From positions 1 to 43,754 of the IMG/VR virus record IMGVR_UViG_3300037465_000092: a stretch of 43,754 nucleotides of DNA; one strand, 5' to 3'. Of this stretch, positions 161 to 40,341 are shown one piece after another. Each line of letters opens with the position of its first letter. Within the stretch, counting starts at the first letter, position 1. Both the position numbers and the translations under genes were made by a program. The notes under the pieces were generated by a model. That model had not been told where the DNA came from, ran no database searches, and saw only the letters and a program-made list of their open reading frames with translations. Origin of the DNA: a virus (lineage: Duplodnaviria > Caudoviricetes).

Positions 161-321
161 AAAAACAAGACAAAAAAAAACACGGTGGCAAAAGGAGTAA
201 TGCAGGGCGCAAACCTGTTGCCGATAAGAAGCAAAGAGTTGACGTATTTATTGAAACAAGCCGCATTGAAAAGAGAGGAGGAATGGATGCAATGAAAAAG
301 TATTTGTATGATGTTGCTTAA
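151..321 (+). CDS. Small basic putative DNA-binding protein (56 aa, GGKRxNAGRK motif)
   Basis: Translated by hand: MKNKKQDKKKHGGKRSNAGRKPVADKKQRV...KKYLYDVA*. Too short for the ORF track. Its TAA stop is the TAA of the first TAAC site. Confidence 0.7.
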   Translation: MKNKKQDKKKHGGKRSNAGRKPVADKKQRVDVFIETSRIEKRGGMDAMKKYLYDVA

Positions 322-448
322 CGTTCCGCGCATTTGCTTTGTTGCCGATTTACGAAGCACAAAATTGTCTGCCGAAACGAAAAGCAAAGATATGAAAAAC
401 GAAACTCAATATAAGCAGGATGGCGGCAATAGAGCAAATGCGCTGTTA
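319..448. mobile_element. attC-like recombination site 1 (array 1)
   Basis: TAAC-GTTCC-GCGCATTTGCTTTGTTGCCG ... CGGCAATAGAGCAAATGCGC-T-GTTA forms an imperfect hairpin bounded by TAAC and GTTA. Confidence 0.75.
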
Positions 449-668
449 GCTGGCTGTGCCCCCGCCTGTATTTGCATTTGTCTTTTGTCGAAGTTGTCCA
501 ATAACGGGAATTACATTTTTGACTACCTAAAAGTCAAATTCTGCTGTCGGGGAACATTTTCAAAAACTTATCTGTCGAGGCACACGCTCTTTTGCAGGGC
601 TTTGACTGCAAATGTGCGTGTGCTATTGGATATTAACAATGAAGTGTTTATTCTTAATAAGTAAAATT

Positions 669-3287
669 ATGAGGAGAAATTATTTTGACTTACTTTCGTG
701 GGCAGAAAACCCAATTTTCATAGCACCGCCAACTACTGTGAAGCGTCACGAAACGAATGATATTGTCCAGTGTTTGATACCTCAATTGGAGGATATTGGA
801 ATCAAAAAAGTATTTTGTAAAGTTGATGTCACCACTGAAAAGTCGGGAAATAAAAGAGGTGATATTTGGATTTCTACTTCCAAATATTCCGAGAAAGCAT
901 TTGAAAAAAATATTGTCTGTCTGATAGAGGCAAAACACCGCAAGTCAAATGTTGGAGATATGGATTGGCGGGATGCGATGAAACAAGGCGCAGAAAAAGC
1001 CAAAAAGCAAAAACTGAATTTTTATATAGTTACGAATTGTGTCTCCGAAGTAAGATATTATAATATAAATAACGATGAAGAAATTTCTCTTGATGATAAA
1101 TTGCTTAATCGTTTCGTAGGAGTTGATGTATTAAAAAAAATTGGGCAACAGGTTACTGCCGAAAATTCTAATGTCAGACACAAGACTGTCACCTTAGCAA
1201 AACCATTCTCCGAATCTAAATTTCGTCAATCATTAAAAACTCTGTCTGACATTTACCGCTCTGCTGGTATAAAAAATGGCGATGACAGGATTGAACCTAC
1301 AATTAGCTTTGTCGTCTTAAAATATATTGAGGAATATGAAAAGAATGAAAGAACATTACACAAAGTAATTAAACTGTGGAGTGATTTCAGAGATATTGTA
1401 TTGGAAAGAGAAGACGGTGATTTGAAAGTTGAATTTGAAAAAATGGTAGAATATATTTGGCATAATGACCGATATAAAGAACACGCTTATAAAGATTTTA
1501 AAGACCTAATAAAGTTTCATAAAAATTTAAAGCACGAACATTTTGTAAAAATTTATACTGAGTTTGACCAGTATAATTTTCACGGAGCAGACTTTGACCT
1601 TTTTGGTGCTATCTATGAAGAATTTGCTTCTCAAACAAAAAAGAAAGAATTTGGAGAATTTTACACAAGGAGACACATTACTGGCGTAGTGTCTCGTTTA
1701 TTATTGAGAAATGAAACTAATCCAAGAGATTTAAAAATTTGTGACCCCGCTTGCGGTGCAGGCGGATTTCTGACGGAAGGATTCAAAGCATTGGTAAATA
1801 ATTATTCTGCAAACTCAAAATTAAATGAGAAAGTAAAAAAGAAATTGAAAGAAGAATATTTTTGGGGATTTGATAATGATGATAAATCAGTTGCCCGAAC
1901 TAAATTGAATATGTTTTTAGTTGGCGATGGTCATATTCATATTTATGAAAATGATTCTATAATTGGATGGGATGAAAGTAAAGGATGGGAAGAAGAAACA
2001 TTTAATTATGTTTTAACTAATCCGCCTATGGGAAAATATGATGGCGAAGCGGATGTTGCCAACTTTGATTTTACCAATGAAAGAAGAATGGAATTATTAT
2101 TTACAGAAAGAGTTGTCAAGGCAACACAATATGGTGGAGATATAGCGATTGTCTTAAATGATGGAGCATTGGAAACTCCGTCACGGTCGGGATTCAGAAA
2201 AAAATTATTGGAACACTGCAATATATATTCAATCATCTCTCTTACAAAATTTGCTTTTGCTCCATACACAAAAGAAAAAACTTATGTTCTCTTTATGTCT
2301 AAAAAGCAAAAAGATGAAATAGGGGAAATCCAAAAATTTCCAATTTGGCATTACATTCTTGATTATGATGGATACGCTAATAGCGATAAGCGATATAAAA
2401 CTAAATATCACGATGACATTGCAGAATTAGAAAATCTTTTTCCTTTGGCTGTCACTAATGCTAAGAATCATTCTAATAAAAAAATATTTAATCAGCATAA
2501 ATCTAATTATGAAAGAAAAGTCAATAAGAGAGAGAAGGAAGAAGGATTGGTAGGATATAAATTCAAATATGTGGAAATGTCCGAAATTAAAAGTGAAAAT
2601 TATTACAACTTAATTTCAGAATTTCATTTGAGACCTTATGAACTTTCAAAATATAAACTAAAAGAGTTTGTAGAATTAGCAAGTAAAATTTTAAGAAAAA
2701 AGATTTCATTAAAGAAGCCAAAGAAAATAATTCAAGAGAAAATAGAAAATATGTTTTCATTTGAGGGTGGCAATAGTGGACTTACGGAAGAATTTGTTTA
2801 TCACCATCAACCCAATTCAATAGATGAACAGTTAAAAATTCTTTCAAGTGCTACTATTGAAGATAAAAATATGGGCTTTGTTTCAAAGTCAGCAAAGATA
2901 GATGGAAGGCAAATAAAAATATTTTCAGGAGAATCTATTTTGATTGCTCGTAATGGATATGCGGGGTCAATGACATATTTTAAAAACTTTACTTATACAA
3001 CAAATGACCACGCTTATGTGATGACCGTAAAACCAGAATGGAAGAAAAAAATAAATTTAAGATTCATCGCTTTTTATTTACAACCATTGTTTTTTAATAT
3101 TGTCACCTCAAAAAGCGATAATGCTACATTCAATAAAGAATATGCTGAATTACAAACGATAAATCTTCCCGATATTAATTATCAAAATACTGTCGGAGAA
3201 TTATTAATTAAACTTGATGAACATAAAGAAAATTTAGAATCTTATTTGTCCGCAATTGATAAATTGAAAAGTTCCGAAGTCATATAG
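669..3287 (+). CDS. Fused restriction-modification enzyme (type IIG-like: PD-(D/E)xK nuclease, N6-adenine methyltransferase, TRD/S-like C-terminus); cassette cargo
   Basis: GDIW...LIEAK nuclease motif, GEFYTR, DPACGAGGFL (motif I), NPPM (motif IV) and an HsdS-like C-terminus (ARNGYAG...TTNDHAY). ATG 669 preferred over GTG 612. Confidence 0.85.
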   Translation: MRRNYFDLLSWAENPIFIAPPTTVKRHETNDIVQCLIPQLEDIGIKKVFCKVDVTTEKSGNKRGDIWISTSKYSEKAFEKNIVCLIEAKHRKSNVGDMDWRDAMKQGAEKAKKQKLNFYIVTNCVSEVRYYNINNDEEISLDDKLLNRFVGVDVLKKIGQQVTAENSNVRHKTVTLAKPFSESKFRQSLKTLSDIYRSAGIKNGDDRIEPTISFVVLKYIEEYEKNERTLHKVIKLWSDFRDIVLEREDGDLKVEFEKMVEYIWHNDRYKEHAYKDFKDLIKFHKNLKHEHFVKIYTEFDQYNFHGADFDLFGAIYEEFASQTKKKEFGEFYTRRHITGVVSRLLLRNETNPRDLKICDPACGAGGFLTEGFKALVNNYSANSKLNEKVKKKLKEEYFWGFDNDDKSVARTKLNMFLVGDGHIHIYENDSIIGWDESKGWEEETFNYVLTNPPMGKYDGEADVANFDFTNERRMELLFTERVVKATQYGGDIAIVLNDGALETPSRSGFRKKLLEHCNIYSIISLTKFAFAPYTKEKTYVLFMSKKQKDEIGEIQKFPIWHYILDYDGYANSDKRYKTKYHDDIAELENLFPLAVTNAKNHSNKKIFNQHKSNYERKVNKREKEEGLVGYKFKYVEMSEIKSENYYNLISEFHLRPYELSKYKLKEFVELASKILRKKISLKKPKKIIQEKIENMFSFEGGNSGLTEEFVYHHQPNSIDEQLKILSSATIEDKNMGFVSKSAKIDGRQIKIFSGESILIARNGYAGSMTYFKNFTYTTNDHAYVMTVKPEWKKKINLRFIAFYLQPLFFNIVTSKSDNATFNKEYAELQTINLPDINYQNTVGELLIKLDEHKENLESYLSAIDKLKSSEVI

Positions 3288-3561
3288 TTGTATTTGATTT
3301 GGCTCTTTTGACTTTGCCCCTATAAAAGTTTCAGGGCTGTTGGGGCAAAGGCAAATGTGCCAAATGGCTGTAATAAGTTTTTGAAAATGTTCTTTTGAAT
3401 TGTCTGTCGAGCCGAGCGCAACTGTCCAACGATGCAAAGCGTGAATGAAAAAAAGTTACTGTCGAGCGTTGATAAACTGTCGTGATGAAAAGTCCACGAA
3501 GCGAGGAGTTGTCGGTTTACTGCGAAGTTGTCCACGAAGCATAGGCGGGGGGCATTGCAGC

Positions 3562-3657
3562 TAACGGTTTTGGGCTTTGCGTTCGTTTGGTGGCCACGAC
3601 ACAGCTTCCAAGTTTGCACAAAGCTCAATGCCACCTAATGACGCAAAACCCGTGTTA
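3562..3657. mobile_element. attC-like recombination site 2 (array 1)
   Basis: TAAC-GGTTTT-GGGCTTTGCGTTCGTTTGGTGGC ... GCCACCTAATGACGCAAAACCC-GT-GTTA hairpin. Confidence 0.75.
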
Positions 3658-3730: not shown

Positions 3731-4420
3731 ATGGCATTAAAAGATAAATATTTCATTGAAAAAATAAGCCGATATACAGCAAAAAAGCTGTTAGATGAAT
3801 ACCACTATTTGCACGAAGAAGGCAATTTCAGGAGTGGAATTAACTTTGGCTTATTTGAAAATGAAAGCCGTTTATTGATTGGTGTTTGTGTGTTTCATAC
3901 TGTATCAGCAAAAGAAATTGTAAAAGGTTGCTTTGCCATACAATCTTATAAGTTAGATGGCTTTATGGAATTAGGCAGACTTTGTATGAACCCCCATAAA
4001 CACGAAAAAAATCTTACATCATTTTTTCTTTCAGGTAGTATAAAATTGCTTCGTAAAATTGAAAAAGTAGTTGCATTGCTTACTTATGCTGATAGCGACC
4101 ACCACACAGGTTATATTTATCAGGCTTGCAATTTTAAATACTACGGACTTACTTCGCCAAAGAAAGATTTTTTTATCTTACAAGCAGATGGTTCATACAA
4201 AAAACTGCAAAGGGGAAAGTGCAGACATTTAAACGGTGAATGGAGAGATAAAAGCCAAAAGCATAGATATTTGATTATTTACGACCAAAGCCTAAAAACA
4301 ATATGGCAAGAGCAGCCATACCCAAAAGCTGAACAAAAAGCACCTTTTAACTTTGAACACACAGACAAACCAAATCAAGAATTTATGCCTTATGAAACAG
4401 CTCAACTTAAAATGTTTTAA
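3731..4420 (+). CDS. Mom-like (GNAT-fold) DNA modification protein; cassette cargo
   Basis: YHYL, ELGRLC and LLTYAD..HHTGYIYQACNFKYYG motifs resemble the phage Mu Mom family. Confidence 0.7.
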   Translation: MALKDKYFIEKISRYTAKKLLDEYHYLHEEGNFRSGINFGLFENESRLLIGVCVFHTVSAKEIVKGCFAIQSYKLDGFMELGRLCMNPHKHEKNLTSFFLSGSIKLLRKIEKVVALLTYADSDHHTGYIYQACNFKYYGLTSPKKDFFILQADGSYKKLQRGKCRHLNGEWRDKSQKHRYLIIYDQSLKTIWQEQPYPKAEQKAPFNFEHTDKPNQEFMPYETAQLKMF

Positions 4421-4495
4421 AATGTGCGATGGGCTTTTTTCTTTTTGTTTCCTACACAAAACTGTCTTTGGAAACGGTCAGATAGCCATTACGCA

Positions 4496-4530
4496 TAACT
4501 CATTTATTAGCGAACATTTTTTATTTTTAC
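4496..4530. mobile_element. Putative attI-like array terminus (array 1)
   Basis: TAACTCATTTATTAGCGAACATTTTTTATTTTTAC; near-identical to 40306-40341 and not followed by a hairpin. Confidence 0.6.
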
Positions 4531-4534
4531 TTTA

Positions 4535-15718: not shown

Positions 15719-17214
15719 GCGTACAGATTTTAGATGGTGATGGGGTAGTTCAAATAGTAATTGATGGTGTGACATCATTCATAGAAAAGTCTTTATTTTT
15801 TATAGATGATGATGGAACAGACATAGTTATTTACAATACAGGTTCTGCAACCGGAAATCCATTTTACAGAAGGACATTTACGGACTTCACACAGCCAAGT
15901 GGAGCTGCCTCTGCATCAGCGTACGTTGCATTGGTTCAAGATGCAATATCAAATACGACAGACGATATTAGGCGTATAAATATATCCGCAGGCGGAAATT
16001 CAAACTATTTATCAAACATAGTATTCTCGAACAGCAACGGTGTTACCTTTGGGCTTAATGGTTCAACGGTGACGGCCTCTGTTGCAGGCGGTGGTGGATT
16101 AACGAACATTAATGTAAGCGCAGGAACGACAAGCAATAACCTTAGCAATATTGTATTTTCCAACTCCAATGGAATATCGTTTGGTTTAAATGGCTCAACC
16201 ATTACAGGCTCTTATACTGTTCCAACAGTTACCAATAGCTCATTCTCTGTCGAAGATTCGGCAACAACTATAAATCCGGTTGCAAGAATAGCATTTAGTA
16301 CAGGCAACAATATAACACTTACACTTTCCACAAATATTTCAAGTGTTACGGTTGGCGTATCGCATAACTTGGCGGGAACAAACACTGCATTAAATCTTAC
16401 TAACCTGACAGGGACATTGTCTGTTAATTCAAATGGAGTTAGCTTATCTATGAGTGCAGATGCAGGTGGCGGAGGCGGTGGTGGGATGACGGTTTCGCAG
16501 TTCCCGCAATCAGCACCACCAATGGCAACAAGCTCCAACTATTCGGGTGCAACAACAACAACAGCAGGAGGAAGCAGGACAACAGTATCGCTATACGTTA
16601 GTCCATTAGTTGTTCAAAATGTTGTTAGCTTCAACAGAGTGTTTCAATTATTATCACACGCAACAGTAGCGGGAACAGGCTCAATAACATACGGCAATGC
16701 CTATGGCTTATATACGCTTAACGGAGGTACGGCATTAAGCCTTGTTAGTTCTTTTGGTTTTGGTTTTCGCCTTTCACAGAACAGCGTAACAGCAAGAAGC
16801 CATTATTGGTACTGGGGAACAAACTCCACCAGTAATAGTTCATCGGTTGGCGGTAATATATCCGCATCCGTTGCGAGATTAAACATGGTGCTATACAGCA
16901 CAGGTGCTAATAGTTTACAAACAGGCAATTATTGGATTGTTTACGGACAAACACAATCAAGCGCAGGAGCTGCTGTTGGCTCATTCAGCAATATGAATGT
17001 GTCTTTTTCTCAAAGTACAATGGGTTCAATGTTTGGTACAAATGTTAGCTCAAGACCATTATTAATGGGTATTGTTTCAACAACGACAACGAACACGGTA
17101 GCAAATAATGTAAGTCATATACTGCCATCATCAATAGCAACAACGGCAATAACTGGAACAGGCGGTAGTTCGCAGAATCGTTCTCAAATAATATTTATGG
17201 TATCACAAATATGA
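15715..17214 (+). CDS. Tail fibre-like Ser/Thr/Asn/Gly-rich protein with an internal repeat
   Basis: Duplicated NI(N)xSAG..SNxLSNIVFSNSNGxxFGLNGSTxT unit and poly-Gly hinges. Confidence 0.65.
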   Translation: MSVQILDGDGVVQIVIDGVTSFIEKSLFFIDDDGTDIVIYNTGSATGNPFYRRTFTDFTQPSGAASASAYVALVQDAISNTTDDIRRINISAGGNSNYLSNIVFSNSNGVTFGLNGSTVTASVAGGGGLTNINVSAGTTSNNLSNIVFSNSNGISFGLNGSTITGSYTVPTVTNSSFSVEDSATTINPVARIAFSTGNNITLTLSTNISSVTVGVSHNLAGTNTALNLTNLTGTLSVNSNGVSLSMSADAGGGGGGGMTVSQFPQSAPPMATSSNYSGATTTTAGGSRTTVSLYVSPLVVQNVVSFNRVFQLLSHATVAGTGSITYGNAYGLYTLNGGTALSLVSSFGFGFRLSQNSVTARSHYWYWGTNSTSNSSSVGGNISASVARLNMVLYSTGANSLQTGNYWIVYGQTQSSAGAAVGSFSNMNVSFSQSTMGSMFGTNVSSRPLLMGIVSTTTTNTVANNVSHILPSSIATTAITGTGGSSQNRSQIIFMVSQI

Positions 17215-17921
17215 TAGTAGGATTAGAAACAGGCATACACAATAGCAATTTAGAAAAGTCAGGCAACAGAATTATTGAGGGTGGTTCATGGAAACATCAA
17301 AGAGTTGTTGTTATTATTCCCGCAGGTAAATCAATACCAACGAAAGTGTATTTGTCTCACTTAGGATTAATTTTCCCACCCAACAATGCCTCTTATAGAA
17401 TGGCTGCCATAGGACTTGAAGTGGGTGAAGCATTTAGTACAGCCATAAATGAAGTCTTATCTCATCCCGAATTATCGCAATGGGAATATATACTAACAAT
17501 AGAACATGATAATATCCCTCCGCAAGATGGATTATTGCGATTGATACAGGCAATGGAACAAAACCCGCAATACTCATGTATTGGAGGTTTATATTGGACG
17601 AAAGGCGAAGATGGCGTTCCCCAAATTTGGGGCAACCCTAAAGACTCTTTAAACTTCAGACCTCAACCGCCAGACCCAAATGGCGGGATAGTAGAATGCT
17701 GTGGAACAGGAATGGGATTTAATCTTTGGCGAATATCAATGTTTAAAGACGAAAAATTGAGAAAGCCTTTTTTTAAAACGCTCACAGGAATAGAAGGGCA
17801 GGGAGTGGGAACACAGGACTTATATTTTTGGGGAGATGCGAGAAAACACGGCTATCGGTGTGCTATACATTGCGGAGTTAAAGTGGGGCATTATGATATT
17901 AATACAGATATAACATGGTAG
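17211..17921 (+). CDS. Glycosyltransferase (GT-A/GT2-like)
   Basis: YILTIEHD (DxD-like), IGGLY, GTGMGFNL, TQDLYF and VKVGH pattern. Confidence 0.75.
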   Translation: MIVGLETGIHNSNLEKSGNRIIEGGSWKHQRVVVIIPAGKSIPTKVYLSHLGLIFPPNNASYRMAAIGLEVGEAFSTAINEVLSHPELSQWEYILTIEHDNIPPQDGLLRLIQAMEQNPQYSCIGGLYWTKGEDGVPQIWGNPKDSLNFRPQPPDPNGGIVECCGTGMGFNLWRISMFKDEKLRKPFFKTLTGIEGQGVGTQDLYFWGDARKHGYRCAIHCGVKVGHYDINTDITW

Positions 17922-18454
17922 AAGAAAAAAAGATTAAAATAGATTTAGCTTGTGGACAGAACAAACAGCCCGGCCACATAGGCGTTGACATTGCGGGAGA
18001 TTGCGATATTAAGCATGACCTTTTAAATAACTTCCCGTATCCGTTTGAAGATAATTATGCAGATGAAATATTTTGCTCACACTTCATCGAACACATCCCA
18101 ATGGAATATATAAACGGCAAGGATAAGTTATTTTCATTTGTAGATGAGTGTTGGCGTATATTAAAAATGGGCGGTAAGTTGACCTTGATATTTCCCAACT
18201 GTACGTCTATTCGTGCATTTCAAGACCCAACACACAGACGTTTTATTCCTGCTGCAACAGTTTATTATTTTAACAGACAATGGCGTGAATTGAATAAGTT
18301 AGACCATTATAACGTAGCTTGTGACTTTGATTTTGTAGTTGGAGAGGCAGTCAATGGCAACTGGCAATTAAGGAGTAACGAAGCGAAACAATTTGCAGGA
18401 CAACATTATTGGAATGTTGTTGATGACTTACATTTTATATTGACAAAAAAATGA
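17915..18454 (+). CDS. Class I SAM-dependent methyltransferase
   Basis: IDLACG, SHFIEHI, ECWRILKMGG and DPTH motifs. Confidence 0.85.
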   Translation: MVEEKKIKIDLACGQNKQPGHIGVDIAGDCDIKHDLLNNFPYPFEDNYADEIFCSHFIEHIPMEYINGKDKLFSFVDECWRILKMGGKLTLIFPNCTSIRAFQDPTHRRFIPAATVYYFNRQWRELNKLDHYNVACDFDFVVGEAVNGNWQLRSNEAKQFAGQHYWNVVDDLHFILTKK

Positions 18455-19089
18455 TAAATCTTTTCATAAATCCATATATCCATAATAATTCAGAGCGGCA
18501 AAAAGAGTTGGATTTTTGTATGAAGCAGAATAGAGAAAATAGATTTATTGATAGAATTTATGAGATTTATGGCAGACCATCATATCGGGATTATTTTAAA
18601 AAGATTAATGAGGTGACAACCGAAGATGATATAAATATCATAGCTAATGCAGATATTTTTTTTGATGAAACTATTATCTTCGCTGAAAATATGCGACACA
18701 ATAACTGCTATTTGTTAAGCCGTTGGGACATAAAATCTATTAAGCCATTTGAAGCACATGTATATAATCAACCGGGCAGTCAAGATGTATGGATGTTTAG
18801 AGGGAAAGTACGGGATATAAAGTATTGCGACTTTCCGTTAGGCAAAATGGGTTGTGACAATAGAATAGCAAGAGAGCTTCATGTGGCGGGATATGCTTTG
18901 GTAAATTGTGCATATACTATTCGCTCTTATCATTATCATTTAACAGAGATAAGGACTTATGACCAATCAATAAGAAATGCACAAACAGTGGTGCCTCCGC
19001 CCTATCAATATGTTTCATTAAGTGCATTAAAAGAAATTCATATTCAACACATAAGGGAAAAATACAAGTTACATGAGAATTTTGCATAG
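18451..19089 (+). CDS. Putative glycosyltransferase (GT-A fold)
   Basis: IIANADIFFD, SQDVW, GCDNRIA and YHYH motifs. Confidence 0.6.
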   Translation: MINLFINPYIHNNSERQKELDFCMKQNRENRFIDRIYEIYGRPSYRDYFKKINEVTTEDDINIIANADIFFDETIIFAENMRHNNCYLLSRWDIKSIKPFEAHVYNQPGSQDVWMFRGKVRDIKYCDFPLGKMGCDNRIARELHVAGYALVNCAYTIRSYHYHLTEIRTYDQSIRNAQTVVPPPYQYVSLSALKEIHIQHIREKYKLHENFA

Positions 19090-20005
19090 CGGATTAATGT
19101 GTAGTGCCGATACAAATAATCCTAACGGGTTTACTAAGGCATTGCTTGATAATTTTGAATATGTTTATGAGCTACCATTAAATACTCCCGATTGGAATAA
19201 TGCTATTGTGCAATCGGCAGAAGCATGTAGCCCTGACATCATCTTTTTTCAAATACAACAAGCAGAACCATTAACAGAAGCAACAGCAAAAAGGCTATCA
19301 AAATGGTTTACCATTAACTGGACGGGAGATGTGCGTCAACCCATCCCGCAATTTTATTATAACTTAGGGAAGTATATTGACTTAACTTGTTTCTCAAACG
19401 AACACGATGTTAATGTTTTCAATACAAAGTTAGCAGGTAAATCGGCATATCTGCAAATAGGAATAGACCCGAATATTTACAAGATAGGATATAATAAAAT
19501 AAATTGTCCGGAGATAGTTTTTATGGGCAATAATTACGGTAACTCATTTCCGCTATCAGAAAGCAGACGGCAGTTAGTAGAGATGATGAAGAAACATTTC
19601 GGTAATAAATTTGCCGTTTATGGTAATGGGTGGAGAAATGCAAAAAGTTTAATGCACTCACAACCATTGGAGGCGCAATATTATAACTCATGTAAGATTG
19701 CCATTAATTACAATCATTTTGATTTGGACAGATTTTCTTCCGATAGAATATTCAGGATAATGGGCAGTGGGGCGTTTTGTTTATCTCAACATTATGTAGG
19801 GATAGAGAAGGATTTTGAAATAGGGAAACACTTAGATACATTTAAAGACTTTAATGAGTTAATACAAAAGACATCTTATTATTTACGGAATGAAGACGAG
19901 CGAAATAAGATAGCCGATGAGGGACACATGCTTTGTCATTCCAATTTTACTTTTGACAACATGGCTAAGAATATAAAAATGTTACACGACAAACATAATA
20001 AATGA
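19073..20005 (+). CDS. Glycosyltransferase (CgeB / Glyco_trans_1_2-like, GT-B)
   Basis: IVFMGN...R, VYGNGW, KIAINY...SDRIFRIMGSGAFCLS and YYLRNEDERNKIA. Confidence 0.8.
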   Translation: MRILHSGLMCSADTNNPNGFTKALLDNFEYVYELPLNTPDWNNAIVQSAEACSPDIIFFQIQQAEPLTEATAKRLSKWFTINWTGDVRQPIPQFYYNLGKYIDLTCFSNEHDVNVFNTKLAGKSAYLQIGIDPNIYKIGYNKINCPEIVFMGNNYGNSFPLSESRRQLVEMMKKHFGNKFAVYGNGWRNAKSLMHSQPLEAQYYNSCKIAINYNHFDLDRFSSDRIFRIMGSGAFCLSQHYVGIEKDFEIGKHLDTFKDFNELIQKTSYYLRNEDERNKIADEGHMLCHSNFTFDNMAKNIKMLHDKHNK

Positions 20006-21287: not shown

Positions 21288-21852
21288 CGATAAATATGAA
21301 TATTGGTGTCGAAGAACGACAGATATAAGTGAACATTTGCCTATTCTAAAAAGATATGCGGAAAAATGTTCGCATGTTACCGAGTTTGGTGTTCGCAATG
21401 TTGTATCTACATGGGCGTTTCTTGCAGCACAGCCAAAAACATTGAGAAGCTATGATATAGAATGGAATGATAATATTAATGAGGCGTATTATTTGAAAGG
21501 ACAAACTGATTTTAAATTTCAAACTGCTGACGTTTTAAAAATAGAAATAGAGCCGACAGAATTACTATTTGTAGATACATTACACATTTATTCACAATTA
21601 AAAAAAGAATTACAATTGCACGCTAATAAGGTCACTAAATATTTAATTTTCCACGATACCGTTACTTATGCGTTAAAGCCGGAGCCGCGAGAGTATATAA
21701 CGGGTGAAGCATTGTGTAATTATATAAATGGCGATAAGGGTATTTGGGCGGCTATTGATGAGTTTATGCAGCAGAATAACCAATGGAGACTGCACGAACA
21801 TTTATCTAATAATAACGGATTAACTATATTACGAAATATAAATAACACATGA
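21277..21852 (+). CDS. Class I SAM-dependent methyltransferase (Methyltransf_24-like)
   Basis: TEFGVR, LLFVDTLH and IFHDT motifs; ATG at 21277. Confidence 0.75.
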   Translation: MNANDKYEYWCRRTTDISEHLPILKRYAEKCSHVTEFGVRNVVSTWAFLAAQPKTLRSYDIEWNDNINEAYYLKGQTDFKFQTADVLKIEIEPTELLFVDTLHIYSQLKKELQLHANKVTKYLIFHDTVTYALKPEPREYITGEALCNYINGDKGIWAAIDEFMQQNNQWRLHEHLSNNNGLTILRNINNT

Positions 21853-22418
21853 CAGAATTAAGAGGAACGCCAGACAAGCATGAACAGGATTGTAACTGGG
21901 AATGGTTCACCGACTTTGCAGGAGTCGGCATGTGTCATAATTATTATGTTCACCATTTGATTTCAAAAGCTATTGATGCGATTGATGGAATAGAAATGAT
22001 TATAGAGCTTGGTACATATTGGGGTAGCATGAGTACCGTTCTTGCATTAGAGGGAATACGCAAACAAGTACCATTTCACACATTCGATATTGAAGAACAA
22101 AGGACACAAGAAACAATAGAGTTCCATAAAAGATTGGGTGTTAACTATCATCAATTAGATGTATTGAAAGAAAGAAAATTTATTATTGATTTGGTAAAGG
22201 ACAAAAAATGTCTTTTTATTTGTGATGCAGGTAATAAGCGGGATGAGTTTTCAGCTTTTGCACCATTCTTAAAATCCGGAAGTATTATCTGCGCTCATGA
22301 TTACACAACCGAATTTTTAGATGAGCATATAGACCCTGTTCGTTCTCTTTTAGAGCCATTTCTGCATAAAGATTGGAATAAACATAATTGTCAATTTGTA
22401 CTATGTCAAATCAAATAA
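21849..22418 (+). CDS. Class I SAM-dependent methyltransferase
   Basis: [13 protein letters not shown] and [11 protein letters not shown] motifs. Confidence 0.75.
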
Positions 22419-22876
22419 TACACGGCAGATATAGTTATGGCAACCCTCAATTAAGGGGTGATACTACAAAAGTATATACCGGCAACTTTACATCGGTATC
22501 TGATTTTGCTATTTTTGATTGCGGCTTTCAACACGATTATAAATGTGTATCTATGTTTGACTGGCGCAAATGGGGATGGACAGATTCAAAGCATTCAATA
22601 AGCAAAGGAGATATACATATAGGTTCTGATTGTTGGATAGGGGAACGCACAATTATAATGAGTGGGGTTACTATTGGTGATGGTGCTGTGGTGGGAGCAG
22701 GGGCGGTAGTCACAAAAGATGTACCACCGTTTGCTATTGTTGGAGGTGTTCCGGCAAAGATTATAAAATATAGATTCTCTGCCGAGAAAATTGCATTTTT
22801 ACTAAAAGAAAAATGGTGGGATTGGGATGATGAAAAAATTAAACAAAACAAAGATTTTATTTTGAGTTACTTATAA
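22403..22876 (+). CDS. Hexapeptide-repeat O-acetyltransferase (CatB/Vat-like fold)
   Basis: IGSDCWIG...[38 protein letters not shown]...WWDW. Confidence 0.85.
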
Positions 22877-22886
22877 AAAAAATTTG

Positions 22887-22939
22887 TATTTTTGTATCAT
22901 CTCTCCTTAGTGCCTTTAGGACGGCAGTAAAATCCAAAG
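22887..22939 (+). promoter_or_regulatory. -7 promoter (TATTTTTG) plus TAGTGCCT...GGCA pseudoknot leader
   Basis: TGCC pairs with GGCA; TTT(A)GGA pairs with TCCAAA. Confidence 0.5.
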
Positions 22940-22996
22940 TGCTTATTGTTCAAAGCAAGGTGTAGAACAATATTTTTTATTTTAAAAAAAACAACT

Positions 22997-23554
22997 ATGT
23001 CACAAGTCTGTATAAATTACAATTGCCAAGACGAACTTGGAGCGCATTTGCTTAACAATTGTGGTTATGAAAGACAGGGTGGTGCATCGCAGGTAATATT
23101 TATAGAATGCGGTTCTACTCTTTCCACCATTTCTGCTTCAGCAATTAACTCTCTCGTAACGGCAGGTAATGCAACAATTGTCAAGAATATCAACATTTCT
23201 TACGATTATGCCTCGCCTGTTGAAGTAGAGGCTAATGTTCCATGTCAGCCATCACGAGTTGTAAACTATAATCGGGAAGGTACATTTATTGACAGAAACG
23301 TAAACTCATCAAACGTAAATTTTTATAATGATATTTTCAAGGGACGCAAGTTCGCAGGAATGTTAATATTTGAATGCGGAAACGAAGATGAGCCGAAAGT
23401 AAAATTTATTGATGCCGTTATTACAATAACAGGCTCTGACCGCCTTCCGAATAACAACAACGAATTTCAGGATTTCAAAGGCACGTTTAAATGGCAATCG
23501 CTCAATATGCCATCTATTCATGATAAACCTGTTGGCATTAATGGTATTGATTAA
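22997..23554 (+). CDS. Putative major tail (tube) protein
   Basis: 185 aa from ATG 22997, beta-rich, with its own promoter, leader and terminator. Function inferred from size and context only. Confidence 0.5.
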   Translation: MSQVCINYNCQDELGAHLLNNCGYERQGGASQVIFIECGSTLSTISASAINSLVTAGNATIVKNINISYDYASPVEVEANVPCQPSRVVNYNREGTFIDRNVNSSNVNFYNDIFKGRKFAGMLIFECGNEDEPKVKFIDAVITITGSDRLPNNNNEFQDFKGTFKWQSLNMPSIHDKPVGINGID

Positions 23555-23556
23555 AG

Positions 23557-23592
23557 ATAGGGAAGGGATAATCCTTCCCTATTATTTTTTTT
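23557..23592 (+). terminator. Rho-independent terminator
   Basis: ATAGGGAAGG-GATAAT-CCTTCCCTAT followed by a T-run. Confidence 0.85.
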
Positions 23593-23594
23593 GA

Positions 23595-24482
23595 ATGAAA
23601 ACAAGGGGAATAGTCATTTTAGCTTTCGGACGTATAGGCTATGCTTATGCAGCCTTTAATCTTTTTAGGAGTATAAGATTTCATAATACCAATGTCCCTA
23701 TTACAGTAATCCATGATGGCATGGTTCAATATAATCTTGCTGAATTTTCTGATTTTGAAAATACGATATTATTGCCTAATGATTTAATAATGCACAATGG
23801 TCGCATAGACCCTGCCAAAGTAAAGTTTGAGGTTTATGATTATCTGCCGTATTATGAAAATTTGATACTTGACGCAGACAATATATGTTTAAAAGACTTA
23901 GAGCCATTGTTATTAAAATTATCCGAGCGCAAAGAAGATTATCTGGTGCAATATGTGCATTGCGGGGGCAAGAATGACTCCATAGATTACACATGGGCGG
24001 ATAACGAAACCGTTTGGAATTTTTTTAATCTTAAAGATGACGCAAAAATATGTTCATTGCAAAGCTCCGTTCAATTTGTACGCAAATCTACAGCGAGCAA
24101 AAAGTTGTTTAAGGAATTTAAAAAATATTTCTATAAGGGATTTCCGCAAGATAAAATAAAACAATGGGGTGGCACAATGGCGGATGAGTTATTTATTTCA
24201 GGCGTTTTGGCAAAAACAGGTGGCAATTACAATATTGGGTTTAAGATAGATTTCTTAGGGCATAAATTTTGGGATATGACACTTGAAGAAATAGAACAAA
24301 AACATTACCTTCTGGCATTGTATGGAAACGGAATAGGCAAGAAGCTGACCAAAGATGTTTACATAGAGTGGGCAGATAGAATAATGCACTCCATACAAAG
24401 GTCATTTAATGCAGAACACCGATATAAAATGTTTTCGATAATGCGCGATAAACACGTTAACTTCACACCAAACAAACATTAA
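23595..24482 (+). CDS. Putative glycosyltransferase (GT8-like)
   Basis: GIVILAFG...Y, LFRSIR, LILDADNICL (DxD) and DELF. Confidence 0.65.
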   Translation: MKTRGIVILAFGRIGYAYAAFNLFRSIRFHNTNVPITVIHDGMVQYNLAEFSDFENTILLPNDLIMHNGRIDPAKVKFEVYDYLPYYENLILDADNICLKDLEPLLLKLSERKEDYLVQYVHCGGKNDSIDYTWADNETVWNFFNLKDDAKICSLQSSVQFVRKSTASKKLFKEFKKYFYKGFPQDKIKQWGGTMADELFISGVLAKTGGNYNIGFKIDFLGHKFWDMTLEEIEQKHYLLALYGNGIGKKLTKDVYIEWADRIMHSIQRSFNAEHRYKMFSIMRDKHVNFTPNKH

Positions 24483-33486: not shown

Positions 33487-34245
33487 ATGGCAAAATTTTA
33501 TATTTTCATTGGACAATCCAACAGCAGAGGCGCAGCACCAAATGCAGACTGTCATCCTTCACTTTCGGGGGAAATGCAGAATGTAAAGATTTGGGATGGA
33601 ACAACATTTTCTAATTTTGATGTTGGCGTAAACCAAAGCTACCCCAACAATGATGCCTTTCATGGAGCAGCACCCGCACTTGTGTATAACGAACAGATAC
33701 GCAATGGGGGAACGATATATGCTATGATGTATTCTATTGGCGACTCACGTTTGGCGAGTGAGACGGGAGGTGCAGAAGATTGGTTTCCTTCCAATAGCGG
33801 GGAGAGTTGTGACAAGGCTATCAGCACCTTCAACAATGCGTTAGCTTATGCTTGGAATACACTTGGCATAAGGAGTTATGAGTTAATTTTCATTTGGAAG
33901 CAAGGTGAGGCAGACACATCCGATGATGCCTATGCGAATGCTTATGAAACCAATTTGACAAATTTTGTCAACAAGATAAACGCTAACTTTTCTGGCACAG
34001 CGTTAACATCAGCAACGAAAAGATGGATGTTTATTAAATTGGGAACAGACACATCATATAATGCAACACGATTAGCTACTATTAATACGGCAATGAATAC
34101 AGTAGCGTCTAATTTAGGTACAAATTATAGAACATTAGACCCAACAGGATATACGTTACAGGTTGACTTACATCATTATGAAGCATCGGGATATAAAGAG
34201 ATGGGGGAAGATTTATCAACAGCCTTTGGCACTTATGGATGGTGA
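33487..34245 (+). CDS. SGNH-family carbohydrate O-acetylesterase (SASA-like)
   Basis: GQSN catalytic Ser motif, WKQGEAD and DLHH (DxxH). Confidence 0.8.
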   Translation: MAKFYIFIGQSNSRGAAPNADCHPSLSGEMQNVKIWDGTTFSNFDVGVNQSYPNNDAFHGAAPALVYNEQIRNGGTIYAMMYSIGDSRLASETGGAEDWFPSNSGESCDKAISTFNNALAYAWNTLGIRSYELIFIWKQGEADTSDDAYANAYETNLTNFVNKINANFSGTALTSATKRWMFIKLGTDTSYNATRLATINTAMNTVASNLGTNYRTLDPTGYTLQVDLHHYEASGYKEMGEDLSTAFGTYGW

Positions 34246-36113: not shown

Positions 36114-36120
36114 ACTTATT

Positions 36121-36178
36121 TTTTTTAAAAAAAATTAATTTAATTAGTTGTAAATTAAAAAAAAATATTTACATTTGC
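36121..36178 (+). promoter_or_regulatory. Duplicated promoter/operator, copy 1
   Basis: 58 bp near-identical to 36443-36500, ending in TACATTTG. Confidence 0.75.
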
Positions 36179-36398: not shown

Positions 36399-36442
36399 TG
36401 GGAATAAGATGAAGTAACGGTGAATCAGTTTGTAAAAAAATA

Positions 36443-36500
36443 TTTTTTAAAAAAAATTAATTTAATTAGTTGTAAATTAAAAAATAATATTTATATTTGC
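36443..36500 (+). promoter_or_regulatory. Duplicated promoter/operator, copy 2
   Basis: TTTTTTAAAAAAAATTAATTTAATTAGTTGTAAATTAAAAAA...TATATTTGC. Confidence 0.75.
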
Positions 36501-36574
36501 GCCATGATAAAATTACTTCTCTATTTATTAAGAGTGAAAAGAAGAACAAACAGACCATTTAAAAACCAAAAAGT

Positions 36575-36772
36575 ATGACAGGCAAATTCAAAATATTGAT
36601 TAATTCCTTGTACGACCATTTAATGCTTCTGGAAGCCGGCTTGCCGGATGAACAGGCTTTACGCATAGCATTTGATGACAAGGCGTATGTAGCTATTGAT
36701 ATTATCACAGAGCTCCTTCTCGAAGAAGATGAGGAAAAGCAACGAAAAATTTTGGAGGACTTTTGGAAATGA
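36575..36772 (+). CDS. Hypothetical acidic protein
   Basis: 65 aa ORF. Confidence 0.55.
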   Translation: MTGKFKILINSLYDHLMLLEAGLPDEQALRIAFDDKAYVAIDIITELLLEEDEEKQRKILEDFWK

Positions 36773-36960
36773 GTTACGGATTAACAGATGAAGAGGATGA
36801 TATTGAGTTGTTAACAGGAGAATGTTTATTTTGCGGGAACATAGGAACATTTGGATATGATTTGCAACGAGTAACAAACACAACATTCGGAATAAAAGGC
36901 GAAGATATTTTGCACACCGATTGTATTGAATCTTTTAAATTAGAACTAACCAAACTATAA
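36769..36960 (+). CDS. Hypothetical protein (CxxC...HxxC)
   Basis: ATG 36769 overlaps the upstream stop. Confidence 0.55.
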   Translation: MSYGLTDEEDDIELLTGECLFCGNIGTFGYDLQRVTNTTFGIKGEDILHTDCIESFKLELTKL

Positions 36961-36966
36961 AAACAA

Positions 36967-37239
36967 ATGGCGAAAATTATAAGTGCAAGCATTGATTTGA
37001 AAAAAATCGACAAAACAAAAATCGTTATCGGGAAAAACAACGCAGAGTATTACAACATTATAATTATATGTAATGATACAAAGGACAAGTTCAATCAAGA
37101 TGTTGCGATTATAGAAGGGCAAACCAAAGAACAACGAGAGACAAAAGAAAAGAAAAAATACATCGGCAACGGAAAGACTATTTGGGAGGGACAATATAAA
37201 CAACAAAACAACGATAGTGGCGATGATATGCCATTTTAA
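36967..37239 (+). CDS. Putative single-stranded DNA-binding protein
   Basis: Acidic DDMPF C-terminus, YIGNGK motif, adjacent to RecT. Confidence 0.65.
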   Translation: MAKIISASIDLKKIDKTKIVIGKNNAEYYNIIIICNDTKDKFNQDVAIIEGQTKEQRETKEKKKYIGNGKTIWEGQYKQQNNDSGDDMPF

Positions 37240-37242
37240 ACT

Positions 37243-38169
37243 ATGGATAAAAAAGAATTAACATCAGATTTATTTAAACCGATAAAAGAAAAATTCATTT
37301 CAGTTGTTGATGAAGTTACTTTTAATAAAGAGGCTTCATTTGCGCTTCAACATTTGAGTCGAAATTCGTATTTAGCAAGTGCGGACAAATCATCAATACT
37401 TGAGGCGGTTTTGAATGTAGCACAAACAGGATTAACCCTTAATCCGGTCTCTAAGCTTGCTTATTTAGTTCCTCGTTTTGTGCGAGATAAGGGAGTTGTT
37501 TGTTGTTTAGAACCATCATATATGGGCTTGGTTAAACTTGCAACCGATACAGGCAGTGTAAAATCCATTTATTCACACATTATTTACCATAACGATGAGT
37601 TTAATTACGAGTTGGGAACTAATCCCGACATCATTCATAAGCCTTTATTAGGTAAAGACAGGGGAAATATGAAGGGTGTTTATGCAGTAGCCGTTTTGCA
37701 GAACGGAACAAAACAGATTGAAGTAATGACAATGGATGAAATTTTTGAGATACGAGATAAGTCTGAAAGTTACAAGGCATATCTTTTGGGCAAAGCAAAA
37801 TCTTGTATTTGGGTTTCCGATGAATCTGAAATGAGCAGAAAGACTGTTATCAAAAGGCTTTGCAAATATTTGCCGAAAACTGAAATGTGGGATAAGCTTT
37901 ATAATGCTATTGAGCTTGATAATTCCGATTATAAAATTTCGGATAATCAAATCAATTTAATTGAACAACTTTTAATGAGTTGTACCTATTCGCCAGAAAA
38001 AATACAATTTATATCTAACAATCTCACAACTTATTCACGTGAACAAGCAACTAATTTAATTGAAGATTTAAAGTTGAATCAATTAGACCCTATTTCATCG
38101 GGTAATAATTACAATCAAACCGACATTAAAAATAAGTTGTTGCAAATAGAAAAAGATAATAGAAAATGA
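37243..38169 (+). CDS. recT: RecT-family single-strand annealing recombinase
   Basis: GLTLNP...AYLVP, SYMGLV, GVYAVA and EMSRKTVIKRLCKYLP motifs. Confidence 0.9.
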   Translation: MDKKELTSDLFKPIKEKFISVVDEVTFNKEASFALQHLSRNSYLASADKSSILEAVLNVAQTGLTLNPVSKLAYLVPRFVRDKGVVCCLEPSYMGLVKLATDTGSVKSIYSHIIYHNDEFNYELGTNPDIIHKPLLGKDRGNMKGVYAVAVLQNGTKQIEVMTMDEIFEIRDKSESYKAYLLGKAKSCIWVSDESEMSRKTVIKRLCKYLPKTEMWDKLYNAIELDNSDYKISDNQINLIEQLLMSCTYSPEKIQFISNNLTTYSREQATNLIEDLKLNQLDPISSGNNYNQTDIKNKLLQIEKDNRK

Positions 38170-38501
38170 CAGAATCCCTCGAAGCGATACGAAGAGCCGT
38201 GAAAGAATACAGGGAAATGAAAGACCCAACAGGTGATGACATGGTTAGATGGTTGCAGATAATAACCACACATCAATTCACACTTGCAGAAGTTAAAGCG
38301 GAATATTACAAAAAATGGCAGAGCATTGTTTTTGAAAAAGTTGGCGAGTTTAACGGTAAAAATATAAGTAGAGCATCGAATATAGCTGATATAAAAGTGC
38401 CAGAATTAGTTTTTCTTCGTCATGTGTTAAAAGCAAGCGAAGATGTTGTAGATGCCTTGCGTAGTCATTTGAGTCATCTTAAATCATTAAAAGAAGTTTG
38501 A
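38166..38501 (+). CDS. Hypothetical protein
   Basis: 111 aa helical ORF. Confidence 0.6.
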   Translation: MTESLEAIRRAVKEYREMKDPTGDDMVRWLQIITTHQFTLAEVKAEYYKKWQSIVFEKVGEFNGKNISRASNIADIKVPELVFLRHVLKASEDVVDALRSHLSHLKSLKEV

Positions 38502-38552
38502 AGTGTATAGTGCAATAATATTTCTATAATTGATAATTTAAAAGACAATCAA

Positions 38553-38897
38553 ATGAGCAATCAACTTGAGCTATTTAAAGAGTGTTCTGTTTATGCTTTA
38601 AAGCAGGAGACAAACTTTTTCAACACGACAAATGAGCGTGGTAAGAAATTAGTAAAAAATGTTTTAAAAGCACAGGCGCAAGACGAAATTATACTTTCTT
38701 ACTTTAAAAAGAAAAAAGCACTTCCTTTAAGTCCCACCCAAGTCTGGAATGCTTTATTTACAATTAATACCCCGATTACATCCGTAAGAAGAGCTATTAA
38801 TACTTTGACGAAAAGAAATCTTCTTGTTAAAACAAATATAAAACGTATCGGTAATTATGGTCGCGAGGAGTATTGTTGGAAGCTATTAATAAAATAA
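38553..38897 (+). CDS. Winged helix-turn-helix protein
   Basis: PITSVRRAINTLTKRNLLVKT...GNYGREE..W. Confidence 0.65.
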   Translation: MSNQLELFKECSVYALKQETNFFNTTNERGKKLVKNVLKAQAQDEIILSYFKKKKALPLSPTQVWNALFTINTPITSVRRAINTLTKRNLLVKTNIKRIGNYGREEYCWKLLIK

Positions 38898-38898
38898 A

Positions 38899-38997
38899 AT
38901 GAGTTTACGATTTACAGAAACAAACAAATGGAAGGACGACTGGTTTTTATCATTAAGCAATGATTACCGAATCGTTCATTTTTACGAAGCAGGATGA
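38899..38997 (+). pseudogene. Truncated 5' duplicate of the replication initiator gene
   Basis: 38899-38976 matches 40530-40607 (78 bp, 3 synonymous differences), then stops after 32 codons. Confidence 0.85.
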
Positions 38998-39039
38998 AGT
39001 GGAGGAAGGCGGCAGTATTTTATTTCGCCAACCCCCTGT

Positions 39040-39158
39040 TAGCGATTCGGGGGTTTGCGATGGCGAGCTTCCACTAAAATAAAAACGAAGATATGAACTC
39101 AAAAATTAAAAATGAAACTGTCAACGAAGCACAGCCCGCTATTGCAAACCCATTGTTA
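39040..39158. mobile_element. attC-like site A (array 2; left box degenerate, TAGC)
   Basis: GGGTTTGCGATGGCGAGCT ... AGCCCGCTATTGCAAACCC-ATT-GTTA hairpin. Confidence 0.65.
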
Positions 39159-39488
39159 TCGGTAGTGCCTGAACGCATACTTTGTTCAGCTATTTGGTAC
39201 AAGAAAATCAAAGCTGTTCCATCTGAATTTAGCATACATGAAAAAACGATAGTAAGTAATATAAGCGAAGGTGTTGTTATTTGCGGACATAGACACTATA
39301 ACTGCATACTTACTTTAATTTATTTGTCAGGATATTCTACTAAAACAAAAGATTGCGGAGAATATGAGCAAGGTTTCCTTACATCTAATAACAGGTTTAT
39401 TGGAAGAAAAGAAGCTGCACAAATTGCATTTGCTGCTGGCCAAACGAAAGAATTAAAAGAAACATTGTTCAGCGAAGACGTCTGGTAG
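39093..39488 (+). CDS. Hypothetical cassette protein; starts inside the attC-like loop
   Basis: CSAIW...CGHRH..C...QGFLTS..RF..RKEA...LFSEDVW. Confidence 0.75.
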   Translation: MNSKIKNETVNEAQPAIANPLLSVVPERILCSAIWYKKIKAVPSEFSIHEKTIVSNISEGVVICGHRHYNCILTLIYLSGYSTKTKDCGEYEQGFLTSNNRFIGRKEAAQIAFAAGQTKELKETLFSEDVW

Positions 39489-39498
39489 GCATTACCGC

Positions 39499-39591
39499 TA
39501 ACGTATCGGGGGTTTGTGATAGTTTGCCCTACTCCAAACTTTCAATGTTAGCAGTAAGCTCAAAGGGGCAAATTTCACAAACCCCTTGTTA
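39499..39591. mobile_element. attC-like site B (array 2)
   Basis: TAAC-GTATC-GGGGGTTTGTGATAGTTTGCCC ... GGGCAAATTTCACAAACCCC-TT-GTTA. Confidence 0.75.
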
Positions 39592-39636
39592 GCGGTTCGT
39601 GGCGATTTAGAAGTAAAAACTTAAATACATATACAA

Positions 39637-39873
39637 ATGAAAAAAATGGCAAAGAAAGACCTGAAAAGGTTAGAGATTACCGAAAGTGCAGATGGTTTTA
39701 CAATTTGGATTTCTGAAACCACTGGTAAAAAAAGAAAGCACTGGTTAGTTGATGCATCATGCTTAAAAGATGATGGTGAAATCCGAATTGGGAAAATTAT
39801 AGATGGCGATAGGTTTCATGCCATTTTTGATAAAAAAACGGAAAGTATCAAGTTAGTAGTCAGCAAGCCATGA
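39637..39873 (+). CDS. Hypothetical cassette protein
   Basis: 78 aa ORF filling the cassette; stop lies within the end repeat. Confidence 0.65.
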   Translation: MKKMAKKDLKRLEITESADGFTIWISETTGKKRKHWLVDASCLKDDGEIRIGKIIDGDRFHAIFDKKTESIKLVVSKP

Positions 39874-39877
39874 CCGC

Positions 39878-40116
39878 TAACGCATCGGGGCTTTCTGTCA
39901 GATTTTTTGCGGATTGAAAACTAAAACTTAATTATATGACACAAAAGGAAATAAAACAATTAGCCGAAAAGATATACGAGGAGTATATTTTTGGGGGCAT
40001 AGGCAGACCAAAATACGGAGTTGATTTTGATAAACGGCATATCATACAGGCACTTGAAATGATGGTGCATAAAACGAGGGAATGGCATGCAAAAAACTTG
40101 CAGAAAGCCCGTGTTA
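39878..40116. mobile_element. attC-like site C with a long coding loop (array 2)
   Basis: TAAC-GCATC-GGGGCTTTCTG..TTTTTTGC ... GCAAAAAA..CAGAAAGCCC-GT-GTTA. Confidence 0.7.
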
Positions 40117-40301
40117 GCGGTTCGTTGCTTGCGGATATAAGACAAGCCGTAGCCGACTATATGAGAAAAGAAGGGTGTTCATGTTGCAGAGATTACGAAG
40201 GACACAAGATAAATGAAGCACGGCTTGGCAAGTTGCTTAAAGTGAAAAAGTATAATGATGGTAGTGGCTATGATTTTAGCAAATACCGTAGCAAGCAATG
40301 A
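39936..40301 (+). CDS. Hypothetical cassette protein; N-terminal half encoded within the attC-like hairpin
   Basis: 121 aa; LQKARVSGSL is encoded by the right arm and GTTA box; EGCSCC motif. Confidence 0.65.
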   Translation: MTQKEIKQLAEKIYEEYIFGGIGRPKYGVDFDKRHIIQALEMMVHKTREWHAKNLQKARVSGSLLADIRQAVADYMRKEGCSCCRDYEGHKINEARLGKLLKVKKYNDGSGYDFSKYRSKQ

Positions 40302-40305
40302 CCGC

Positions 40306-40341
40306 TAACTCATTTATTAGCGCCATTTTTTTATTTTTAAC
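40306..40341. mobile_element. Putative attI-like array terminus (array 2)
   Basis: TAACTCATTTATTAGCGCCATTTTTTTATTTTTAAC; its first 17 bp are identical to 4496-4512. Confidence 0.6.

Follow-up and report, generated by a model that had tools for sequence, protein, structure and literature searches.

Integron-like cassette arrays in a phage genome without a recognisable recombinase, and their probable loading in trans by an Xer-like enzyme of Bacteroidota

Integrons gather gene cassettes by a tyrosine recombinase, IntI, and the tyrosine recombinases share the catalytic pattern R-K-H-R-H-Y. Integron crossover is at G|TT on the strand opposite to AAC, the classical attC site has a 5/6-nt central spacer and extrahelical bases, and the sedentary chromosomal integrons carry repeats of ~125 nt. 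Here, we describe two arrays of similar layout in a freshwater metagenomic phage (Duplodnaviria; Caudoviricetes), the IMG/VR record IMGVR_UViG_3300037465_000092, which was analysed whole at 43,754 nt and is called the window below. Each cassette is a TAAC...GTTA hairpin with one gene, and each array is closed by a landing (attI-like) simple site. The same hairpin family occurs in Bacteroidota chromosomes, where the hairpins point at the gene of an Xer-like tyrosine recombinase, the linked recombinase, and contigs of a possible source sample have joints exactly at TAAC. We consider it fairly probable that the phage arrays are loaded in trans by such a Bacteroidota recombinase, which either the host or a co-infecting phage would provide.

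The closest described systems are phage-borne too. Qi et al. 2023 (PMC9892861) reported 17 clusters of attC sites lacking an integrase (CALINs) in phages, including one in a Bacteroidota phage, and of the six sites tried with IntI1 only P12002L_attC1 failed to recombine. In Polaribacter phage P12002L, one member of the present hairpin family was called by HattCI (PMC9892861). In the sections of the paper available to us, the sites are read as classical attC, with no mention of a separate family, its own recombinase, a landing site or inverted genes. By our model, P12002L_attC1 belongs to the hairpin family (20.8 bits, E 0.018), so the published failure with IntI1 (PMC9892861) concerns a relative of the window's sites and not those sites themselves. 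Of the 12 sites listed for P12002L, 8 belong to the family at E<0.05. Immediately behind one of these hairpins is a Mom-like gene that shares 35% identity with the one of cassette 2 in the window, and no relative of the linked recombinase was found in this phage. P12002L and the window alike have Bacteroidota-phage arrays stocked with DNA methyltransferases in which the linked recombinase was not found. P12002L_attC2 (L196 29240, minus) overlaps, on the opposite strand, the apparent terminal YAAC of a methyltransferase array, with a cassette end match 772 nt upstream.

Another Polaribacter phage isolate, Leef_1, has the same hairpins, matched cassette ends and terminal site (L195 3846-6861). 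Next after its terminal site comes a gene that is annotated 'integrase' and shares 35% identity with the linked recombinase; unlike the window phage, Leef_1 has the enzyme in cis. Bartlau et al. (PMC8776804) took integrases as a sign of temperate lifestyle, and the words 'integron' and 'cassette' occur 0 times in its main text as available. No description of the system was found in the literature covered, to which most subscription journals do not belong, nor in the available parts of PMC8618304, 10.1101/030866, PMC13616975, PMC11054128 and PMC11602168. The lists of miniature inverted-repeat transposable elements in PMC11602168 may hold such hairpins.

The sequence-only reading of the window had placed five hairpins with exactly one gene after each, and all five are found there, each with one same-strand gene behind it (the array features given here are all on the + strand). 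Array 1 is preceded by a 56-aa gene (151..321) whose stop codon, TAA, forms part of the first TAAC core. It consists of hairpin H1 (319..448), which is intact and has the full length of the ~125-nt host family, the 872-aa gene of cassette 1 (669..3287, the first ATG of the frame being at 612), the intact hairpin H2 (3562..3657) and the cassette 2 gene (3731..4420). Its landing site (4492..4512) is made of a cassette end, the TAAC core, 7 nt and TTAGCG.

Array 2 begins at a cut duplicate (38899..38976) of the start of a putative replication gene, the other copy of which is at 40530. The right arm of a broken hairpin follows (38977..39041, with GTTA at 39038-39041), recognised by its likeness to the intact right arms. 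Then come H3 (39040..39158), with an intact stem and its TAAC core gone, the cassette 3 gene (39093..39488; 131 aa; phrog_839), the intact H4 (39499..39591), the cassette 4 gene (39637..39873; 78 aa; no family), which stops 4 nt 5' of the next TAAC, H5 (39878..40116; 239 nt), with intact ends and ~60 codons of its gene in the loop, and the cassette 5 gene (39936..40301; 121 aa; no family). The genes of cassettes 3 and 5 begin within the loops of their hairpins; from there to the end of GTTA it is 65 and 180 nt, respectively. The closing landing site (40303..40322) reads CGCTAA-8 nt-TTAGCG. An 84-nt repeat of 95% identity (38893-38976 and 40524-40607) brackets array 2, the stub amounting to 32 codons.

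Both arrays close with the same 17-mer, TAACTCATTTATTAGCG (4496-4512 and 40306-40322), as had been proposed along with cassette-end sequences that also prove correct. This 17-nt core is identical at both landing sites, the surrounding 79-nt repeat being 75% identical overall. The TAGC at 39040 had been taken for a variant box; we reject this because it overlaps the GTTA of the broken hairpin just upstream. An intact TAACGTA form of H3 stands behind another cassette end in a contig of sequencing run X1 (loose end at 39047), and the core of H3 was likely lost by a microhomology deletion. With H3 damaged, array 2 retains two intact hairpins. Non-specific recombination is the likely origin of its left edge.

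The complementarity of cassette ends holds in quantitative form. In a 5x5 gapped comparison every cassette start pairs best with its own end (5/5), and just 0.03-0.7% of the 3858 other GTTA/TAAC pairs in the window score equally high. Folding energy is weak by itself, with z of -1.45, -1.78, -0.91, -5.25 and -2.09 for H1-H5, strong only for H4. Unanchored scans of the window for hairpins and end matches gave no gain over Markov controls and were replaced by anchored and model-based tests. A covariance model built from 42 host hairpins only has H1-H4 as its top four matches in the window (E 7e-11 to 2e-4), at 61 bits for H1 (E 7e-11), 35.7 for H2 (E 1e-5), 33.8 for H3 and 30.3 for H4. The next match has E 1.6, and H5, with its long loop, is missed. 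It is this top ranking by a host-only model that makes the case against chance for the hairpins.

The host loci are the best 80 of 593 genome loci, mostly of Bacteroidota and at 32-47% identity, from 12 of 64 parts scanned, and many have short flanks. They hold 94 hairpins, of which 86 point at the recombinase gene, 40 from upstream on the same strand and 46 from downstream on the other strand. In an independent set of 81 loci outside the model training, the polarity toward the gene is seen in 15 of 15 model matches. Consecutive host cassettes have complementary ends in 41 of 48 cases (permutation mean 4.2, maximum 12). Among 121 sampled genomes of Bacteroidota, the model has matches in 61, the largest number reported for a single genome being 29. 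The sequence-only reading had expected such hairpins in Bacteroidota genomes beside an IntI-like integrase. Its first half stands, as the arrays adjoin a tyrosine recombinase at a similar simple site, and its second half does not, as the enzyme is not IntI.

The host arrays are varied in scale and layout. Flavobacterium difficile has >20 near-identical 126-nt hairpins (G001:C8 ~12600-45400; L119, L151, L152), an array that converges on the 3' end of the recombinase gene and looks superintegron-scale. Recombinase length differs by class among host loci L050-L128: mostly 341-403 aa where the array converges on the gene, with the extra part at the N-terminus, and mostly 274-295 aa, in some cases ~355 aa, where the array lies upstream. 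The Flavo-1 RNA motif lies just upstream of the recombinase gene at two Flavobacterium loci (L120 5120-5195 and 7542-7618; L119 7626-7678); one of these matches is over the gathering score and all are outside the arrays.

The linked recombinase has a phage counterpart. At viral locus L005, found by a hairpin-pattern search, TAAC-7 nt-TTGGCG closes the array, and a truncated recombinase gene comes immediately after it. The 14 full-length relatives of this enzyme, of 278-299 aa, have R138, K163, H227, R230, H253 and Y263 invariant (14/14), and by these catalytic residues the linked enzyme is a tyrosine recombinase. Its best family and structure-sequence matches are archaeal XerA, XerD and IntI4. 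It scores up to 165 against XerA (cut-off 220), 122 against XerD (cut-off 330) and 94-118 bits against the integron integrase family TIGR02249 (cut-off 265), the last in two stretches. Being under every curated cut-off, it is not an XerC, XerD or XerA equivalog. It has 32 residues where IntI4 has 75, 43 fewer at the insertion, so the IntI insertion is absent. These cut-off and insertion tests were run on the phage-type clade A1 enzymes, and both speak against the integron-type IntI that the sequence-only reading had named as partner. In the five genomes checked, the linked enzyme is their best match, and the four bacterial ones have further, more distant paralogues. The insertion is not fully conserved within the 'integron-like subgroup' of Smyshlyaev et al. 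2021 (PMC8138268), and in the available parts of that paper no cassette role was found for its insertion-less members.

The sites depart from attC as well. The RYYYAAC/GTTRRRY boxes known from integron cassettes do not describe them: in the window, GTTRRRY fits none of the 5 right boxes and one of the 6 left ones, and in the hosts it fits 8 of 72 hairpins. The two spacers are mostly 5-6 versus 1-3 nt, the dominant pairs being 6/3, 5/1, 5/3 and 6/2. One G.T pair is conserved in 41 of 42 host hairpins, and the TAAC...GTTA strand is the more stably folding one in 33 of 42. An asymmetric bulge of 3-4 nt is conserved as well. We thus regard it as very improbable that the window holds an ordinary CALIN of classical attC sites served by a classical IntI. 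Such an origin would agree with the AAC/GTT cores, the integron-like layout and the report of CALINs in lytic phages, among them a phage of Bacteroidota (PMC9892861). It is opposed by the box and spacer counts, by the low TIGR02249 score and missing insertion of the linked recombinase, and by the family member that failed with IntI1 (PMC9892861).

The crossover is nevertheless at the integron position. The Y of YAAC tracks the upstream cassette in 14 of 15 informative host pairs, and the letter after YAAC is G in 72 of 72 host hairpins and mostly T or A in the host terminal sites. This covariation in host arrays places the crossover within AAC. Like integrons, the host arrays have a recombinase, a simple site at its end of the array, cassettes of gene plus hairpin, complementary ends and an AAC/GTT crossover, and the window shares the simple site and the complementary ends (5/5), with joints at TAAC in sample contigs. 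Unlike integrons, there are no IntI insertion and no GTTRRRY boxes, a bulge and a G.T pair are conserved, the phage genes are inverted, and no intI adjoins either array of the window. Thus, the system is integron-like in how it works, and the IntI and attC tests place it outside the integrons.

The direction of genes separates the phage arrays from the host ones. Host cassette genes, taken as the longest open reading frame (ORF), run against the TAAC...GTTA strand in 50 of 66 cases, along it in 4 and unclearly in 12, which is the classical integron direction from attI to attC. The phage cassette genes run along that strand in 5 of 5 cases in the window and 9 of 12 elsewhere, and some of them start inside the loop and continue across the right arm. 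This inversion favours a phage pool that is largely separate and speaks against a simple capture of host cassettes.

If the hairpins and terminal sites were mainly RNA elements such as terminators, attenuators or translation controls, the cassette look would be secondary. The site at 40303-40322 scores, weakly, as a terminator with a T tract, G.T pairs suit RNA and some genes begin in loops. However, the T tract is missing at most other phage terminal sites, the host genes are on the other strand, and neither the distant end complementarity nor the polarity toward the recombinase would be explained. Moreover, Rfam has 0 matches at E<=1 in the window and no family at the array-hairpin coordinates of four loci scanned. 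A mainly RNA role is therefore quite improbable in our judgement.

The landing sites were compared with a matrix of 18 host terminal sites, each <=200 nt from the recombinase gene; 11 of 29 host rows were left out, ten for lying >200 nt from the gene and one for being a hairpin start. Among the 812 YAAC sites of the window, this matrix ranks the landing sites of arrays 1 and 2 as 1st and 4th, and with 11 converging-class sites they rank 1st and 2nd. In distinct viral loci with YAAC-N7-TTRGC, a G follows in 7 of 8 array-linked ones versus 3 of 26 others (p 1.6e-4), by the classification made here. One array-linked viral locus (L159) matches the window's landing site at 16/17 letters. Thus the landing pad is a phage-type site, best fitted by YAAC-N7-TTRGCG and related to yet distinct from the host-type consensus. 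As the phage-type pattern fits best, either the host or a co-infecting phage could be the source of the recombinase.

Similar sites stand directly before a recombinase gene in the phage arrays of L005 (truncated gene), L021 (full gene of 291 aa) and the isolate Leef_1; among the array-linked YAAC-N7-TTRGC loci counted above, L005 alone has a recombinase within the flank covered. The exact 17-mer has 4 matches in IMG/VR, none with arrays, two of which are within genes that we take to resemble thymidylate synthase, and the flanked landing-site pattern had 0 matches in metagenomes. One host candidate, a match ~650 nt behind a lone hairpin (L150, G052:C26 ~321870-322660), was not counted, its ends matching at 2/5 and the recombinase being on another contig. 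The locus, in which a host chromosome has the hairpin, an antisense gene and a 16/17 match to the window's landing site with weak end complementarity, is possibly a secondary-site insertion and possibly chance.

The window itself has no tyrosine recombinase in Pfam (65 ORFs) and PHROGs (58) searches, a six-frame PF00589 search or a search with the array-linked recombinase. The six-frame search found 0/1 in the window and 14/14 in positive controls. The genome of 43.6 kb is rated 100% complete and has a 160-nt terminal repeat, in keeping with its having been called apparently complete. The majority of its genes have no family in Pfam or PHROGs, among which a recombinase of an unrecognised kind might hide. 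We find this extremely improbable: the same site family is elsewhere tied to a recognisable tyrosine recombinase, and the six-frame searches were empty, although they included neither a dedicated serine-recombinase profile search nor folding of the unknown proteins.

Contigs of two sequencing runs, X1 of the possible source sample and X2 of an independent study, were compared with the array 2 side of the window (36500-43754), as contigs only. One X1 contig follows cassette 3 as far as the C of TAAC (39502), after which its next 26 letters are identical to the array 1 landing site and unlike that of array 2. TAAC and these letters make 30, as would be expected from the overlap of merging paths in a 31-mer graph. 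The native end of array 1 is only 20/31 identical there, under the 85% required, so a misplaced contig is unlikely. In another X1 contig, a foreign cassette end is joined at 39878, the T of the TAAC of H5. Hence, variation bounded at TAAC, on which the sequence-only reading had staked its claim, is present in the sample, and with the same hairpins in host arrays by the recombinase it bears out that the arrays are cassettes of a site-specific system. X2 gave two short contigs identical to the window, spanning the entry of array 2 and the joint of cassette 4 and H5. X1 also has a second, diverged version of cassette 3 (depth 12-15) and, past H5, sequence that continues differently, so another genome shares the pool and the joints may be its own.

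The arrays might instead be frozen relics, assembled long ago in a recombinase-bearing phage, and their only remaining movement would be by RecT-type annealing, at hairpins that resemble each other and at short repeats. The phage does have a gene for a RecT-like single-strand annealing protein (37243..38169, +; PF03837, phrog_148), and its cassette ends are similar enough for annealing. H3 fused to a remnant arm, the start of array 2 at a duplicated gene start and the truncated recombinase of L005 would fit as well, as would a relative in X2 from which a gene flanked by two 19-nt direct repeats is apparently missing. These repeats (43500-43518 and 150-168) flank a 72-aa gene (43530-43748), and an X2 contig fuses both copies. 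However, annealing would not readily give two joints exactly at TAAC, identical 17-nt cores within the 75% identical 79-nt repeat, or cores and matched ends kept in 4 of 5 hairpins. Recombinase-free arrays with intact landing sites also recur, PF00589 being in 0 of the 5 records with array-linked phage-type sites, one of which is 100% complete. We therefore consider the relic explanation unlikely, though not negligible, and take site-specific loading in trans as the best reading.

Several observations weigh against loading in trans by a Bacteroidota recombinase. The joined contigs possibly come from another phage in the sample (depth 9-15 versus 7.5), and neither excised circles nor empty sites were seen in the contigs over 36500-43754, which gave no joint within that stretch. 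The damage of H3 and the start of array 2 at a cut replication-gene copy tell that non-specific recombination has also shaped array 2. At one position where all 18 host sites have A, the window site has another letter, and the expected landing site adjoining a host recombinase was not found: the landing 21-mer has 0 exact matches in GTDB, and its one-mismatch form occurs in 18 of 401 genomes, not above the reversed control, with none <=1.5 kb from a recombinase. Only about half of the sampled Bacteroidota genomes have the hairpins, and the stem covariation is partly circular because the hairpins were selected for stems. No close relative turned up in viral contigs with the replication protein, terminase, cassette 3 and cassette 1 as queries, the RecT query gave 2 distant loci and no close relative in metagenomes, and blastn against phage records gave short matches only.

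The mechanism that we propose for loading in trans is as follows. Each cassette would be a hairpin and one gene with self-complementary ends, the row being closed by a two-box landing site. An Xer-like tyrosine recombinase of Bacteroidota, supplied in trans by the host or a co-infecting phage, would excise and insert cassettes at the TAAC core. The TAAC...GTTA strand would fold as single-stranded DNA, equivalent to the attC bottom strand, and the bulge of 3-4 nt and the G.T pair may mark the folded strand in place of the extrahelical bases of attC. Circles would be the intermediate and new cassettes would enter beside the landing site. The phage cassettes would be read from upstream phage promoters and drawn from a largely separate pool.

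The cargo points to counter-defence. By PF02384, PADLOC MTase_I and Specificity_I and the motifs DPACGAG and NPPM, the cassette 1 protein is an N6-adenine methyltransferase with a specificity domain at the C-terminus, and its N-terminal part is likely a nuclease domain. Its best other relative is at 84% identity, and its 0 of 401 matches in Bacteroidota genomes at E 1e-60 leave a capture of this gene from the host unsupported. Cassette 2 encodes a Mom-family DNA modification protein (PF25680, E 7e-27; phrog_1384). As they belong to the methyltransferase and Mom families, the two likely shield the phage DNA from restriction.

In the rest of the genome, Pfam and PHROGs identify terminase, portal, tape measure and RecT proteins. 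The hairpin family suggests a Bacteroidota host. TAnnTTTGC, which we take as the Bacteroidota promoter motif, occurs 10 times per strand in the window, a count that gives no host evidence. Two 61-nt AT-rich intergenic repeats of 95% identity (36118-36178 and 36440-36500) both end in TTTGC and thereby presumably resemble Bacteroidota promoter elements. Genes for a glycosyltransferase, a methyltransferase, DUF5672 and a hexapeptide transferase form a block between the tail and portal genes (17211-24482), and a SASA-family esterase gene is at 33487-34245; together they possibly serve virion or DNA glycosylation. A 210-aa gene (42202-42834) resembles only the catalytic part of histidyl-tRNA synthetase/HisZ (PF13393), its TIGR00442 match being split in two stretches and far under the cut-off, an odd cargo for a small phage.

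In summary, we see an even chance that these arrays reveal a second, unrecognised Bacteroidota integron lineage, together with recombinase-free phage landing pads, an inverted cassette pool and reloading in trans with anti-restriction genes. This can already be put to the test with two phages, the isolate Leef_1, which has the system complete, and the cultured P12002L, for which our search gave no such enzyme. If true, single-strand site-specific recombination would be possible without the IntI insertion or the attC geometry, contrary to the held view, and the standard integron surveys would overlook most gene capture in a major phylum. The phages, for their part, would gain a site-specific path to mosaicism in their counter-defence genes.

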